A stretch of DNA of 36,124 nucleotides from Klebsiella phage ST340-VIM1phi10.1. Positions 25,687-30,325 of this stretch are shown here, piece after piece. The notes beneath the pieces are model-generated. The model had not been told where the DNA came from. It did not search any database and worked only from the letters and a program-made list of their open reading frames with translations. A program made the translations under genes and the position numbers. Where the stretch lies: sequence record MK422455.1; one strand, 5' to 3'. How positions within the stretch are numbered: position 1 is the first letter of the stretch; the number at the start of each line of letters is the position of its first letter.

Positions 25687-25994
25687 TGTCAGCCCTTTTT
25701 GAGTTCTACTCTTCCAGGAAGAAACATTCCTGACCTCTTGCCGGGATACCGTGTACCAGTTTGCTAGTGCGCCGCTCTTTTATGGTTCTGCCTTCAAGAT
25801 CGGTACCTACCTAACCCATGTACCTGTCTGTTGGAAAAGGACGCTATTCCTGCCCTAACTCCCAACTCCCCCCAACCCCCCTCTTCCCTCTTCCCCATCC
25901 CATGTACTCGCAAGCTGGTACAAAGAACAAAAAACAGTCAAGGATTGTTCCCTGCTATCACCCGGCACCTTTAAGCCCGGTGACCAACGGATCG

Positions 25995-26288
25995 TTACTG
26001 AGATCCGGCCAGGGGTGGCTGGGTCGTATACCCCTGCAGTGCGCGTCCGTGTGCATCCACGAATCTGCGAAGCCTCACATTGGCTTCATGCCTTGCCCGG
26101 TTCTCCTTGCGGTATGGAACGGGCTCGGCTTCGAACGATTCCTGATACACAGCTGCATAACGCTGAATGGCTTTTTGTCGTGCTGCTGGCGTCAGGCTCA
26201 GTAACTGCTGCTTGATCCATTCTTCATCTGCAGATGCGTACACAGATGGGAGCAAACCGTGGTCAGGCCTCATCCCGTGCAACATCAT
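25995..26288 (-). CDS. Hypothetical protein at the cII position
   Basis: 97 aa immediately downstream of cro; basic C-terminal half; function not recognised. Confidence 0.4.
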   Translation of the reverse strand: MMLHGMRPDHGLLPSVYASADEEWIKQQLLSLTPAARQKAIQRYAAVYQESFEAEPVPYRKENRARHEANVRLRRFVDAHGRALQGYTTQPPLAGSQ

Positions 26289-26484
26289 CTGAAAATACCT
26301 CGTCCAAACTTGTATTCAGGCCAAGCTGTTTAAACGCGCTGACGATCCGCTTTCCGACTGCAACATCAGGAATCCTTCTTCCTGTTTCGTAGTGGCTAAC
26401 GGCCCCCTGGGAGCTATCAATCAGCGCGGCCAGCTCTCCCTGAGTTACCTTTGCTTTGCGTCTAAGGCTCTTGATTCCACTCAT
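26263..26484 (-). CDS. cro: Cro-like HTH (XRE family) regulator
   Basis: 73 aa from ATG 26484. HTH VTQGELAALIDSSQGAVSHYETGRRIP. Divergent from cI. Confidence 0.7.
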   Translation of the reverse strand: MSGIKSLRRKAKVTQGELAALIDSSQGAVSHYETGRRIPDVAVGKRIVSAFKQLGLNTSLDEVFSDDVARDEA

Positions 26485-26581
26485 TCGATTAGTCTCGCAT
26501 AAATAATACATAACGTACTATACACGGTCACAAGAATAATACAAAATGGAAGTTGCTCAGTAAATACGGAATGTAATAATC
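26485..26581. promoter_or_regulatory. OR-like divergent promoter/operator region (pR / pRM)
   Basis: 97-bp cI-cro intergenic region. ATAATACA at 26503-26510 and 26536-26543, a related GTAATAAT at 26572-26579, and AATACATAACGTA at 26505-26517. Confidence 0.5.
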
Positions 26582-27250
26582 ATGGCTATGAAACAGAGAT
26601 GGCAGGACCTGGCCAAAACCAGGATGAAAGAAGTCGGCATGACTCAAGAACAGCTGGCAGAGGCGCTCGGCATAACGCAGGGCGGGCTGGGCCATTGGTT
26701 AAACGCCAGACGTGAACCGAACTTAGAGGTTATAGCTAAGATTTTTAACATATTGAAAATGCCCGGCTTCGTAGTAAATGCTGACGGCACTATCAGCGAC
26801 TCAAGAGCCGATCACAATGTAAGTTTTAATAGCATTAACGAATCCAAGGGAAGCTACCCTGTTATAAGCTGGGTTAGCGCTGGAGATTGGATGGAAGCTG
26901 TAGAACCGTACCACCGTAGAGCGATAGATCGATGGTATGACACCACCGTTGAATGCTCTGAGGATTCGTTCTGGTTAGACGTCAGAGGCGATTCCATGAC
27001 ATCACCAGCAGGGCTGAGCATACCGGAAGGGATGGCGATACTTGTCGATCCCCAAGTGGAAGCAATCAACGGAAAATTGGTTGTAGCGAAACTTGACGGT
27101 GACAATGAAGCCACTTTCAAAAAGCTTGTTATCGATGCCGGTCAAAGATTTCTCAAACCCCTCAACCCCCAATACCCAATAATCCCTATCAATGGCAATT
27201 GCCGTATTATCGGGGTTGTAGTCGACGCAAAAATCACCAACCTCCCATAA
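26582..27250 (+). CDS. cI: CI-type repressor (N-terminal HTH, C-terminal LexA/S24 autopeptidase domain)
   Basis: HTH MTQEQLAEALGITQGGLGHWLN. S24 domain with GDSM Ser and KLVVAK Lys motifs. Confidence 0.85.
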   Translation: MAMKQRWQDLAKTRMKEVGMTQEQLAEALGITQGGLGHWLNARREPNLEVIAKIFNILKMPGFVVNADGTISDSRADHNVSFNSINESKGSYPVISWVSAGDWMEAVEPYHRRAIDRWYDTTVECSEDSFWLDVRGDSMTSPAGLSIPEGMAILVDPQVEAINGKLVVAKLDGDNEATFKKLVIDAGQRFLKPLNPQYPIIPINGNCRIIGVVVDAKITNLP

Positions 27251-27254
27251 ATTG

Positions 27255-27277
27255 GCCGCGAAAGCGGCTTTTTTTTT
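27255..27277 (+). terminator. Intrinsic terminator after cI
   Basis: GCCGC-GAAA-GCGGC hairpin followed by T9, starting 5 nt after the cI stop. Confidence 0.7.
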
Positions 27278-27371
27278 GCCTCCAACACCCCACCAGAAAC
27301 TAAAAAACCTTGAAAAACAAAATGATGTGAAATAACACACCAAAATACTCCATTTTGTATTGATCTTATTT

Positions 27372-27386
27372 AATACGTTATGTATT
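27372..27386. promoter_or_regulatory. OL-like operator: inverted copy of the OR motif (AATACGTTATGTATT)
   Basis: 13 contiguous bp TACGTTATGTATT are the exact reverse complement of AATACATAACGTA in OR (26505-26517). Internally palindromic (AATAC-N5-GTATT). Confidence 0.45.
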
Positions 27387-27420
27387 GTTTATGCATTAGC
27401 GGATTAATGGAGTGCAAAAG

Positions 27421-27735
27421 ATGAGTACAGAGAAATTTTTTCAACTGGTAACTATACCTGATTACCGTTTCTCTTCCGATAAAGAGCAATGTCAAAACAT
27501 TGATTTCGACAAAATTGCTACTGATTGCGATACAAAAACAATATCTATTTTGCAAGCCATCAATCATATAGGGGTTAGCATAATGAGTGAGGCAGAAGAA
27601 AAGAGATTAAATAAAGATAAAATAATGATGCTTTCTAGTGTGGTTGCAGACCTCGCTGAATTAGCAATAGCAACAAATAAAATAGCTAACTCAGCAACAT
27701 ATTCTTCCGGTTATAAGGATGCTAAAAATGTCTGA
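27421..27735 (+). CDS. Small acidic hypothetical protein (104 aa), AT-rich moron
   Basis: GGAG 8 nt before ATG 27421; about 35% GC; no recognisable domain. Confidence 0.5.
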   Translation: MSTEKFFQLVTIPDYRFSSDKEQCQNIDFDKIATDCDTKTISILQAINHIGVSIMSEAEEKRLNKDKIMMLSSVVADLAELAIATNKIANSATYSSGYKDAKNV

Positions 27736-27916
27736 TATCACTTTGCAAAAAGCAGCATCAAAGGCTTACCAGGCTGAGATTGTGGCGAGGATGCTTGAGA
27801 ACTACCCTCATAAACTGACCGACTCAGACGTGGAATCTGTCGCCTCACTTTTGGCTGATCTGATTGGGCCAGTTGCAGCGTACCTTATTGAGGAAGAGTC
27901 TAAAAACCCGGCTTAA
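27728..27916 (+). CDS. Small acidic helical hypothetical protein (62 aa), translationally coupled to the upstream gene
   Basis: AAGG 8 nt before ATG 27728; 8-nt overlap with the upstream stop; net acidic. Confidence 0.5.
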   Translation: MSDITLQKAASKAYQAEIVARMLENYPHKLTDSDVESVASLLADLIGPVAAYLIEEESKNPA

Positions 27917-27984
27917 AAATTTAATTAGTAATTTTAATTACAGGAGTAATCCCGGGGATTTCTGCAATCAAATTAAGGGTAACC

Positions 27985-28083
27985 ATGATTAATAAACAAG
28001 CATTTAAAACAGCTCAGTTATTTGTCTCTCTTGGTTATTGGTCTATAGCCATGCTTTATTTAAAAAAGGCTTACGGTAAATAA
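27985..28083 (+). CDS. Possible 32-aa hydrophobic peptide (MINKQAFKTAQLFVSLGYWSIAMLYLKKAYGK)
   Basis: AAGGGT 5 nt before the ATG; its stop lies 2 nt before the next gene's GTG start. Confidence 0.2.
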   Translation: MINKQAFKTAQLFVSLGYWSIAMLYLKKAYGK

Positions 28084-28085
28084 AA

Positions 28086-28451
28086 GTGAATAATTTAATT
28101 AGCACTTATAGACGCAGAATTTTAAAAGCGGCCTTGTTACGCCACCAGCGAAAGACTGGGAGTAGCTTACTTGTCATTAAGCTCAACAAGGGTGGGATTA
28201 GTACTATCGAATTAACTGAGATTCTTCTTGATGGATTGTTGCGGAAATTCGAGCGACTGGCGCTCGGTGAATACGGAAATGTGGAAGGTGTGAAAGCTCT
28301 TAAGGGAATTTACAGCAACTCTGTTGATGTTAATGGCAGCGGCGAATTCCTCACAGAAAGCGGGAAAGAGTTAATCGACGAGCTTATTTCTGAACTGGTT
28401 GAGTTCGTCAAAAAGCAGAAACCAGTTACTGCGGAGTCCGGCAATGAATAA
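28086..28451 (+). CDS. Hypothetical protein with N-terminal arginine-rich motif (candidate N-like antiterminator; weak)
   Basis: STYRRRILKAALLRHQRK near the N-terminus; located downstream of the OL-like site; GTG start; C-terminal half acidic, unlike lambda N. Confidence 0.4.
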   Translation: MNNLISTYRRRILKAALLRHQRKTGSSLLVIKLNKGGISTIELTEILLDGLLRKFERLALGEYGNVEGVKALKGIYSNSVDVNGSGEFLTESGKELIDELISELVEFVKKQKPVTAESGNE

Positions 28452-28698
28452 CCAGCAAACAATGCTCTATCAGGGTGTGCTGATCCCCCGCCCCGTGTTG
28501 AACGTGGATCTGCATGTCCTCCCTGATTTTACCGGGCGGGTAGTCTTGCACATCGAGAACGGGAGGGTGATATGCGACCGCCAGCTGTTCGACGACGAGC
28601 ACATTTGCACACTGGCCACGTTTATCGAAATGGCCCGCGACGCGGGGTTGAGGATCGAGGAGGAAGCTGGTGGCACTGACAGCGATACGAATTCCTGA
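28444..28698 (+). CDS. Hypothetical protein (84 aa), start overlaps the upstream stop (ATGAATAA)
   Basis: ATG 28444 overlaps TAA 28449-28451. Confidence 0.4.
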   Translation: MNNQQTMLYQGVLIPRPVLNVDLHVLPDFTGRVVLHIENGRVICDRQLFDDEHICTLATFIEMARDAGLRIEEEAGGTDSDTNS

Positions 28699-28884
28699 GA
28701 GGGTTCACCTGCAGGCGCTGCAGGTCCTGCTGCGGTATCGGCGCCGGCGGATATTCCCGCGGCGAATGCGCCGCACCGGCTACCTCAGCCTGAAGGTTAA
28801 CCCACGCTGGCGCCTGTTATCGAAAGACGATGGCCGGAACTGGGAAGTTATGAGTCATGAAACCTATAACCGGGAGAAAGACAA

Positions 28885-29310
28885 ATGATTGACAACAGAA
28901 CTGTCAGCGCCATTGACCTGGCGTTGCAAAAGCACCCAACGCCAGTTGGTGATCTGTTCGCCGCGATCCGCCACGGACGCATGAAGCGGTGCTTCAGCCG
29001 GGATACCGCAATTCGTTACCTGGCGTTCTTCATGACCTCCCGAGCTTTTGGGCGTTCTGGTTTCAAGCAGCGTTATCCGGACGTGCAGGTAATTCATCCA
29101 CTGAATCCAGAACTGAGTAGCTGGCAACGTGGCGCCGTGACCACTGAGTATTTTAACGCCCACCAGCGCACCGTTCGCCGGCTGCGTCGCATCCTCGCCC
29201 GCAAAAGAGAAATGCAAAAGTGGTGCAAAAAGTGGGATGCCATGCACGACCGCTACGTGAAAGAGCGCGAAGAACTACAGGCCTGTAAGCCTGGAGGGCT
29301 GAGTCGATGA
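28885..29310 (+). CDS. Basic hypothetical protein (141 aa)
   Basis: GGGAGAAAG ribosome-binding site before ATG 28885. Confidence 0.45.
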   Translation: MIDNRTVSAIDLALQKHPTPVGDLFAAIRHGRMKRCFSRDTAIRYLAFFMTSRAFGRSGFKQRYPDVQVIHPLNPELSSWQRGAVTTEYFNAHQRTVRRLRRILARKREMQKWCKKWDAMHDRYVKEREELQACKPGGLSR

Positions 29311-29501
29311 TTGCTTACTTACGCATTGTTCTATCGGTGGTGATTGTCGCCAGCGTTTATGGGCTGTTCGTTCCGATCCTCATTTCGATGAAGGACACGA
29401 CAGCAGTTATATCCGGTTTTGCCCTGGCGATTCTGACCCCGCCGTGCATCTACGCCATTTGTAAGGGTCTTGTGCTTACCGTAACGAAGGAAAAGAAATG
29501 A
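29307..29501 (+). CDS. Small two-transmembrane-segment membrane protein (64 aa), coupled to the SPFH gene
   Basis: Two hydrophobic helices; ATGA overlaps with both neighbours. Confidence 0.45.
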   Translation: MIAYLRIVLSVVIVASVYGLFVPILISMKDTTAVISGFALAILTPPCIYAICKGLVLTVTKEKK

Positions 29502-30325
29502 AAAAAGCAATTATGGCTTCAATTATCGCACTCTCTGCCATCGGCCTTGTTGGTTGCGATCGAGTTGAGCCCGGCAACGTGGGTATCAAGGTGAATAAGT
29601 TGGGCGACGATAAAGGCGTTGGTGAAGTCGTCGGCGTCGGCCGCTACTGGACCGGCTGGAATACCGAGGTTTATATCTTTCCGACCTTCAAGCAGATGAA
29701 AACGTATGAAGACGCTTTCAACTTCCAGATGAGCGATGGAACCACCATCGGCTACCACATCGGGGTCGCGTACAAGGTTGATCCGACCAAAGTTACAACC
29801 GTTTTCCAGACCTACCGTAAAGGCGTGGACGACATCACCGACACCGACCTGCGGCAGAAAATTGCTGACGCCCTTAATCGTCTCGCAAGTCGGATGAGCA
29901 CCGATAAATTCATTGACGGCGGGAAAGCTGAGCTGCTTGAAAACGCACTGAAAGAGATCCAGTCCGATATGGGGCCGGTTGGTATCCAGGTGATCAGCCT
30001 TTCTTACGTTGGCCGTCCGGAATACCCGCCGACAGTGATCGAAAGCATCAACGCCAAAGTTACGGCCAACCAGAAGACGCTGCAGCGCGAGCAGGAAGTT
30101 AAACAACGTGAAGCTGAAGCCAACATGTTACGAGCCGAAGCCGATGGCCAGGCGGATGCAAAGCTGAAATTGGCTGAAGCAGAAGCAAAGTCTATCCAGA
30201 TCCGTGGGCAGGCCTTGCGTGAGAACCCTGAGGTACTGCAACTGGAGGCCATCAACAAATGGAATGGCACCCTGCCCCAGTACATGACCAGCGGAACAAA
30301 CACCCCTTTTATCCAGGTTAAATGA
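29498..30325 (+). CDS. SPFH/band-7 (HflK/C-prohibitin fold) lipoprotein
   Basis: Signal peptide with lipobox LVGC; SPFH core followed by a long coiled coil (EQEVKQREAEANMLRAEADGQADAKLKLAEAEAKS). Confidence 0.75.
   Translation: MKKAIMASIIALSAIGLVGCDRVEPGNVGIKVNKLGDDKGVGEVVGVGRYWTGWNTEVYIFPTFKQMKTYEDAFNFQMSDGTTIGYHIGVAYKVDPTKVTTVFQTYRKGVDDITDTDLRQKIADALNRLASRMSTDKFIDGGKAELLENALKEIQSDMGPVGIQVISLSYVGRPEYPPTVIESINAKVTANQKTLQREQEVKQREAEANMLRAEADGQADAKLKLAEAEAKSIQIRGQALRENPEVLQLEAINKWNGTLPQYMTSGTNTPFIQVK

Follow-up and report, generated by a model that had tools for sequence, protein, structure and literature searches.

Which switch controls two small, overlapping genes that lie just past the terminator of a prophage repressor gene, do they belong to the phage core or to its exchangeable cargo, and what may their products do? 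These questions are raised by Klebsiella phage ST340-VIM1phi10.1 (MK422455.1), a lambdoid prophage of Klebsiella pneumoniae, in which two such genes, here called A (104 amino acids, aa) and B (62 aa), follow the cI-type repressor gene. The window is the whole stretch of DNA that was analyzed (36,124 nt), and all coordinates refer to it. The original prediction, made from the sequence of the window, had placed the two genes at an immunity hotspot, under the same repressor that acts between cI and cro. Our analysis allows us to state with high confidence that positions 27347-27388 are the leftward early promoter and operator (pL/OL) of this prophage, with A and B as its first two cistrons. The coordinates, the gene sizes, the tight coupling of the genes and the cI terminator in front of them are all as had been claimed.

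The promoter and operators upstream of gene A

The features needed for this part of the analysis are given below in the order of their coordinates, with expect values (E) for profile matches. OR is the operator region between the divergent cro-like and cI genes, and HTH stands for helix-turn-helix.

26263..26484, minus strand: cro-like HTH gene that diverges from cI and codes for 73 aa if read from the ATG at 26484 (Pfam HTH_3, E 1.4e-10; annotated as an XRE regulator in phage KPP5665-2)
26497..26577, no strand: OR region, with operator-like sites at 26505-26519 (AATACATAACGTACT), 26539-26553 (AATACAAAATGGAAG) and 26563-26577 (AATACGGAATGTAAT), from motif, promoter and repeat scans
26531-26526 (-35, GTGACC) and 26508-26503 (-10, TATTAT), minus strand: predicted cro promoter, from the promoter scanner
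26582..27250, plus strand: cI-type repressor gene, 222 aa, HTH_3 and Peptidase_S24 domains (Pfam S24, E 8.6e-30; HTH_3, E 9e-12; phrog_4)
27254..27278, plus strand: predicted intrinsic terminator 3' of cI, hairpin GGCCGC-GAAA-GCGGC at 27254-27269 followed by T9, from the terminator scan
27347..27361, no strand: OL-b, putative operator copy that abuts and overlaps the -35 of pL; in reverse complement (AATACAAAATGGAGT), it corresponds to the OR site at 26539-26553
27360..27388, plus strand: predicted pL promoter, -35 TTGATC at 27360-65, a 17-nt spacer and -10 TATTGT at 27383-88, a mirror of the cro promoter
27372..27386, no strand: OL-a, putative operator copy (AATACGTTATGTATT) with perfect AATAC/GTATT half-sites, in the spacer and overlapping the -10; it contains the 13-mer discussed below
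27421..27735, plus strand: gene A, 104 aa, phrog_2583, with an ATG preceded by GGAG at 27409-12; supported by conservation and substitution rates
27728..27916, plus strand: gene B, 62 aa, phrog_1478, with a start that overlaps the stop codon of A; supported by substitution rates

The claim of shared control had been built on a 13-mer that is found exactly both in the 97-bp OR region (26505-26517, plus strand) and, inverted, upstream of gene A (27374-27386, minus strand). The match is indeed exact, and it is larger than had been claimed, as the 13-mer is only the core of an inverted match of about 55 bp that forms a mirror copy of the cro promoter together with two operators. Two ungapped arms make up this copy, one of 34 nt (82%; 26497-26530 against 27361-27394) and one of 19 nt (89%; 26532-26550 against 27349-27367). 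When the OR region was scored against the mirror image of the spacer between cI and A, the score had a z of 9.0 and was matched in none of 200 dinucleotide shuffles. The first arm holds both the -35 and the -10 of the cro promoter, which, when mapped across, become TTGATC and TATTGT on the plus strand, aimed into gene A. It should be noted that the resulting promoter scores 8/12, one below the cut-off of the scanner, and that it was located via the inverted repeat and not listed by the scanner itself. Relatives carry TTGACG or TTGACA and TATTGT or TATTAT at the same 17-nt spacing.

The mirror copy lies 25-70 bp upstream of A, past the cI terminator, and the -10 lies 33 nt upstream of the gene. 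Transcription is predicted to start near 27395, which leaves a leader of only about 25 nt. Two OL sites are clear and a third is doubtful. An equivalent hairpin and T-run after the repressor gene is also found in loci L002, L003, L005, L008, L011 and L176. A terminator-like hairpin on the minus strand at 27342-27323 was rejected, as L002 does not conserve it and the number of such hairpins is close to that expected by chance. We consider this site to be pL/OL because the promoter is mirrored and correctly oriented, because it is accompanied by two operators and because the half-sites covary with those of OR, as described next. On this evidence, the same repressor very probably governs A and B, as the original prediction had proposed.

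Covariation of operators with the immunity type

We followed homologues of A into loci that differ in their immunity region and inspected six immunity types by eye. In all six, the spacer upstream of A bears half-sites that match the OR of that same phage. These are AATAC..GTATT in the window and in E. coli DX6, ACATAWTATGT in L003, TACT..AGTA in L005 and L008, TGTACATTAYGTAGT in Erwinia (L011) and ACAAGTT/AACTTGT in Serratia L176 and in L041. Such covariation is the strongest available evidence, short of experiment, that the site upstream of A would be OL.

The same arrangement is seen on a larger scale in the IMG/VR database, where a repressor-sized open reading frame (ORF; 220-260 aa) ends 143-206 nt upstream of A in 75 of the 76 evaluable loci with A. 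The motif G[DNE]SM is present in 70 of these 75 ORFs, which have some two dozen different N-termini, and A is combined with about a dozen or more immunity types. By a crude ungapped mirror test, 11 of 25 repressor groups, including the window type and its close variants, gave scores that were reached in at most one of 200 shuffles.

A leader, CATCGGCAAACAACGGAGC, located about 10-30 nt 5' of the first pL gene, is near-invariant over several immunity types (L003, L005, L008, L011, L176 and many IMG/VR loci) and is retained even in Serratia, where A is only about 36% identical to that of the window. First genes unrelated to A (families C1 and C16) have it in front of them as well, and the window itself has a diverged version. 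An RNA element was considered for this leader and rejected, since the sequence is limited to some sublineages and also stands before unrelated genes. It is probably a module-junction sequence that allows cassettes and immunity regions to be swapped. Other changes are seen nearby: in L068, an ORF for an insertion sequence-type transposase replaces the repressor upstream of A, and in L073, about 1.26 kb are inserted between A and B. Mobile elements appear to target the A/B region.

Genes A and B: selection, coupling and separability

In comparison with E. coli DX6, A has a ratio of non-synonymous to synonymous substitution rates of 0.075 and B one of 0.02, while synonymous sites are close to saturation; these ratios indicate that both are real genes under strong purifying selection. 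Phages ST512-KPC3phi13.5, P12620-1 and P18-100 share the surrounding 2.3 kb at 100% identity, and KPP5665-2 does so at 98.5%. The exact A and B sequences were found on at least 1000 contigs, among them K. pneumoniae HS11286 (A0A0H3GRU6 and A0A0H3GSA4), and Salmonella Fels-1 carries both genes (STM0898.7n/STM0898.6n) in the same place after the repressor. The record of Fels-1 (L178) over-calls A (STM0898.7n) as a 183-aa ORF that overlaps the repressor gene.

In a first survey, which was anchored on A and B themselves (80/80 loci) and is circular in its sampling for this reason, the start of B overlaps the stop of A by 8-20 nt in 77 of the 80 loci; in the window the overlap is 8 nt (ATGTCTGA). 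The divergences of the two genes are correlated (r = 0.84, 55 unique intact pairs). The two genes are, nevertheless, separable. The Yersinia phage YP3 has the order cI-A-122aa-xis-int, with no B, and in a remote Serratia relative A comes first after cI, with B 1.3 kb further downstream. A premature stop interrupts B in L003 and L004, and B is truncated in four of the 80 loci, with A intact throughout. In the other direction, B is found without A in 10 of the 80 B-found loci, which are P4-like or other integrative elements. For an isolated phage, YP3 (L179) has an unusually stripped-down immunity region, with no cro-sized gene visible in the 48-bp gap between the ORF in the cII slot and cI.

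In the elements that carry B without A, tandem arrays are formed by B and several B-like proteins, which are likewise small, acidic and two-helical. These arrays are adjoined by homologues of the 121-, 84-, 141- and 208-aa genes of the window, described below (e.g., L013, L122, L128 and L132). Lambdoid prophages and satellite-like elements are thus linked by a shared pool of early genes.

A variable slot between pL and two conserved genes

Past B, two further features serve to delimit the region in which A and B lie.

27985..28083, plus strand: 32-aa ORF (MINKQAFKTAQLFVSLGYWSIAMLYLKKAYGK), unannotated in phage records, present in 76 of 78 loci with A, with a weak match to phrog_2180
28086..28451, plus strand: 121-aa gene, phrog_1737, function not annotated; the more constant neighbour, at which the AT-rich island ends

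In the 76 of 78 A-loci that carry it, the 32-aa ORF shows amino acid variation around AFKTA...GYW.IA.LYLKKAYG. Its product, which is hydrophobic or amphipathic in character, may act on membranes as a small peptide.

In a second survey, relatives were sampled via the neighbouring helicase gene, which yielded 67 evaluable loci, 62 of them with a measurable slot. A was found in just 14 of the 67, and the notion of A as a core, position-locked gene was rejected. The 32-aa ORF is kept in most of the helicase-anchored loci, and 34 loci keep it and the 121-aa gene without A or B. In the 62 loci, the cI stop and the 32-aa ORF are 650-1782 bp apart; the slot is never empty, and its ORFs fall into 24 clusters. 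As first gene, family C1 (about 100 aa) is found in 23 loci, C0 (137 aa) in 18 and A in 14, beside several singletons; as second gene, B is found in 13 loci, a 141-aa family in 16, a stand-alone S24 domain in seven, and others as well. Slot occupants were also considered as distant relatives of A or B, and this was rejected by hhalign, the lone 70% match (A1-C1) being the translated shared leader.

Since A is present in few of the helicase-anchored loci and since the slot is never empty and holds unrelated families, we regard it as highly probable, from this comparison of loci, that the region between pL and the 32-aa/121-aa pair is a hotspot for variable cargo, with A-B as one cassette among several. 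The cI/pL hotspot of the original prediction is borne out in this way.

One of the other occupants, the stand-alone S24 peptidase domain, is of about 131 aa (phrog_6201, 'CI-like repressor') and is found, e.g., in L219, 698 nt after cI. It has no DNA-binding domain and stands just 3' of a full-length repressor, and it could interfere with the dimerisation or cleavage of that repressor.

In base composition, the pair had been given as about 35% GC against a prophage average of about 55%. These figures need correction, as we measured 33.7% for A (27% at third codon positions), 47.1% for B, 38.7% for both together and 51.7% for the window. The AT-rich island spans 27251-28451 (38% GC) and takes in the 32-aa ORF and the 121-aa gene too.

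Composition, predicted structure and homology of the A and B proteins

Both proteins are acidic, as had been noted, but mildly so: A has an isoelectric point of 5.04, with 12 Lys and Arg among its 104 residues and 14% Asp and Glu, and B has an isoelectric point of 4.49, with five Lys and Arg among 62 residues and 16% Asp and Glu. The AlphaFold2 model of A (predicted local distance difference test, pLDDT, of 81) is a two-helix antiparallel hairpin of residues 29-59 and 65-103, the core of which exceeds a pLDDT of 90; the N-terminal segment is of low confidence in the model but conserved, with the consensus QLVDIPDYR. The model of B (pLDDT 91) is a compact two-helix hairpin of residues 6-25 and 32-59. 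Judged by these models, neither protein has a hydrophobic membrane helix, and neither presents an enzymatic or a DNA-binding fold. A and B are not detectable paralogues, as this possibility was rejected by hhalign (probability 0.1%).

The statement that neither protein has a recognisable domain stands for Pfam, NCBIfam and PADLOC, in which we found nothing meaningful for either of them, and Rfam gave nothing either; PADLOC gave only a 15.9-bit partial match to a Type I specificity subunit. It does not stand for PHROG, where both are full-length family members: A belongs to phrog_2583 (E 2.4e-64 over 1-104 of 104) and B to phrog_1478 (E 2.7e-35 over 1-61 of 63), each a family of 'unknown function'. 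By PDB sequence profile, no relative with a solved structure was found for either protein, and Foldseek (A against the PDB and BFVD, B against the PDB) returned generic hairpins alone, the best PDB matches having E 0.2 (A) and E 1.5 (B). Profile and fold searches on both proteins, which the original prediction had suggested, thus gave no homologue with an established function. A search of 1.84 billion representatives with a profile hidden Markov model of A gave 30 matches in all. Two giant ones among them (2742 and 2018 aa) were rejected as homologues, being repeat proteins that score by accumulation. A metal site in A was rejected as well, since remote members do not have the Cys of 'DCDTK'. 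In the literature, nothing functional was found for the PHROG identifiers, the phage names or the Fels-1/Sakai locus tags. The record of KPP5665-2 (L001, GP36) labels its A homologue a 'recombination-related exonuclease', a label that no domain search supports.

The neighbouring early genes

The original prediction had described a two-gene operon. The pair is not a self-contained operon, however, as A and B stand at the front of a much longer one that extends as far as xis. After B, on the same strand, follow the 32-aa ORF, the 121-aa gene, an 84-aa gene, a ParE-like gene and a 141-aa gene, and then genes for a small membrane protein and an SPFH lipoprotein, a 208-aa gene, an Ant-like gene, three small ORFs and xis. 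The integrase gene beside xis is on the opposite strand.

Two pairs of genes within this operon should be mentioned. The 84-aa gene (phrog_340; 28444-28698, plus strand) overlaps by 29 nt the 72-aa ParE-like gene (28670-28888, plus strand), the product of which matches a ParE-like toxin domain (PF24732, E 2.6e-20) and is very arginine-rich in its N-terminal part (RYRRRRIFPRRMRR). These two genes, both of which recur in P4-like elements, may form a toxin-antitoxin-like pair within the early-left operon. The stretch 29307-30325 (plus strand) encodes a 64-aa membrane protein (phrog_1130, 'moron' category) and, behind it, a 275-aa SPFH/Band_7 lipoprotein (phrog_200), a pairing that is reminiscent of membrane-associated exclusion modules.

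To the left of OR, the primase and helicase genes, the cII-slot ORF (25995-26288) and the cro-like HTH gene are on the minus strand. Between the helicase gene and the cII-slot ORF (25690-25994) lie a long C-rich tract at about 25855-25895, G-rich on the transcribed strand, and a terminator-like hairpin with a T-run (25954-25939, minus strand) that resembles a tR1-like element. Despite this element, no N-type antiterminator is recognisable in the phage by Pfam and PHROG profile searches.

Proposed mechanism and its alternatives

Our explanation is as follows. In the lysogen, the cI terminator would stop read-through and CI bound to OL would close pL. A and B are therefore predicted to be silent there, as they stand behind a terminator and the sole visible promoter is covered by two operators. 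Upon infection or induction, A and B would be among the first proteins made and would be translated as a coupled pair. They may then bind another protein stoichiometrically, and would probably do so in the form of small helical bundles; such a binding mode seems the most likely one because the models are plain hairpins with no catalytic or nucleic acid-binding fold. A host factor would be the most probable target, in host takeover or in early lytic counter-defence. We favor these over an exclusion function that protects the lysogen because the cargo is patchy, swappable and, by prediction, expressed early.

The confidence level differs between the parts of this explanation. The identity of pL/OL, the reality and coupling of the two genes and the hotspot are shown by comparing sequences, while repression by CI, early timing, the binding mode and the class of target are inferred. 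Taken as a whole, that is pL/OL control, an accessory slot and host-directed binding, we lean towards it. The protein-binding, host-directed function of A and B, as such, is put forward tentatively and falls somewhat short of being probable. More speculative still is the idea that A-B is an unrecognised early host-directed module made of two coupled helical hairpins (e.g., an inhibitor of a host defence or housekeeping complex) and that the pL-proximal slot is a reservoir of interchangeable counter-defence or takeover genes, from a pool common to P4-like satellites.

Several results weigh against the explanation and should be considered here. As to the operators, AATAC-N5-GTATT with up to two mismatches is not enriched across the window (14 found, 12 expected), the 13-mer with up to two mismatches gave at least two matches in 12 of 100 shuffles, and the mirror test was not significant in 14 of the 25 repressor groups, the operators of which are short palindromes. 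As to function, no known anti-defence gene and no known function were found among the alternative slot occupants, so that guilt by association is void; A and B are separable, and a heterocomplex is thus not obligatory; and the intactness of A in 80 of 80 loci, as well as its being kept in the minimal operon of YP3, would also suit a regulatory role directed at the phage.

Such a role is the alternative that survives best, although we consider it unlikely. A, with or without B, would here be the phage's own developmental regulator, e.g., a CIII analogue that guards the cII-slot protein, an unconventional antitermination factor or Rho antagonist that replaces N, or a modulator of CI or Cro. A is promoter-proximal, like N in lambda, no N-like or CIII-like protein is recognisable in the early-left operon, and there is the terminator-like site between the cII-slot ORF and the helicase gene; to the conservation of A one can add its first position after cI in the remote Serratia relative. 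However, about four fifths of the close relatives with the same helicase/primase module lack A and have unrelated proteins instead. Furthermore, A and B are acidic, with no arginine-rich motif, and no nut-like sequence is common to the pL and pR transcripts, the single match being of 12 nt with one mismatch, which is at chance level. The free combination of A with its many immunity types is also hard to square with a factor that would have to fit cis sites or a given repressor. An N-like antiterminator, in particular, was rejected on charge, on the lack of nut sites and on this free combination.

Less likely still is that A and B are a module for exclusion, abortive infection or toxin-antitoxin activity, expressed in the lysogen at a basal level. 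The genes do adjoin the repressor gene, a known spot for exclusion systems (lambda rexAB, P22 sieB), they are small and overlapping, and A is AT-rich. Yet the terminator between cI and A/B is strong, and the only visible promoter is operator-covered. PADLOC gave no match to such a system, and neither a membrane segment nor a nuclease, kinase or antitoxin-type DNA-binding fold was found. The toxin-antitoxin-like pair that the original prediction had listed as a candidate is contradicted by A without B, B without A and B broken while A is intact, which leave no obligate pair.

That the inverted match is a chance likeness of AT-rich DNA, with A and B driven by an unregulated promoter of their own, might be read from the two motif counts given above (14 against 12 expected, and 12 of 100 shuffles), but it is very improbable for a collinear match of about 55 bp in the right orientation that includes both promoter hexamers, and for a relation that recurs with wholly different operators in the other immunity types inspected.

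If we return to pL/OL control and a host-directed cargo, the regulation is textbook lambdoid OR/OL and is, as such, no great gain. What is useful is a hotspot with clear limits, pL at one end and the conserved 32-aa ORF at the other. Its occupants are all uncharacterised small proteins, the synthesis of which is predicted for the first minutes of the lytic cycle. As the A-B cassette is very common, a functional assignment would improve the annotation of many Klebsiella and Enterobacter prophages from the clinic. Should the cargo turn out to serve counter-defence or host takeover, the slot would provide a simple positional rule for finding more.

Comparison with known systems

By any feature examined, A and B appear to belong to no N, Ocr/ArdA, Ral or toxin-antitoxin family. 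The closest known proteins are those of PHROG 2583 and 1478, of Fels-1 and of HS11286, of which the window A and B are full-length members or identical copies, and none of which has an assigned function. The class proposed here is that of lambda Ral, CIII, Kil and Gam and of T7 Ocr/ArdA, which are small early proteins that bind host proteins and are not catalytic. In contrast to these, A and B show no similarity to them in sequence, profile or fold, and with 14-16% Asp and Glu they are unlike the DNA mimics. The comparison with Ral and Ocr, offered in the original prediction on the grounds of acidity, thus does not hold for these mildly acidic two-helix hairpins.

Lambda rexAB, P22 sieB and BTP1 bstA are accessory ('moron') genes beside prophage repressors that are expressed in the lysogen and protect it. 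A-B resembles them in its position beside the repressor, in a content that varies between similar phages and in an atypical base composition. It differs in standing behind a terminator and an operator-covered promoter, which predicts silence in the lysogen and expression early in the lytic cycle, and it has no homology to them.

The promoter region has its parallel in lambda pL/OL. Unlike in lambda, pL here directly follows the cI terminator, with no rexAB-type genes between; there are two clear OL sites, the first gene is not N-type, and control by the repressor is predicted from the sequence. The likeness, nonetheless, extends to the layout: cI and cro diverge around a three-site OR, a second promoter beyond cI stands under operators of the same family and heads a long early-left operon that ends in xis, with int adjoining, and the operators change along with the immunity type.

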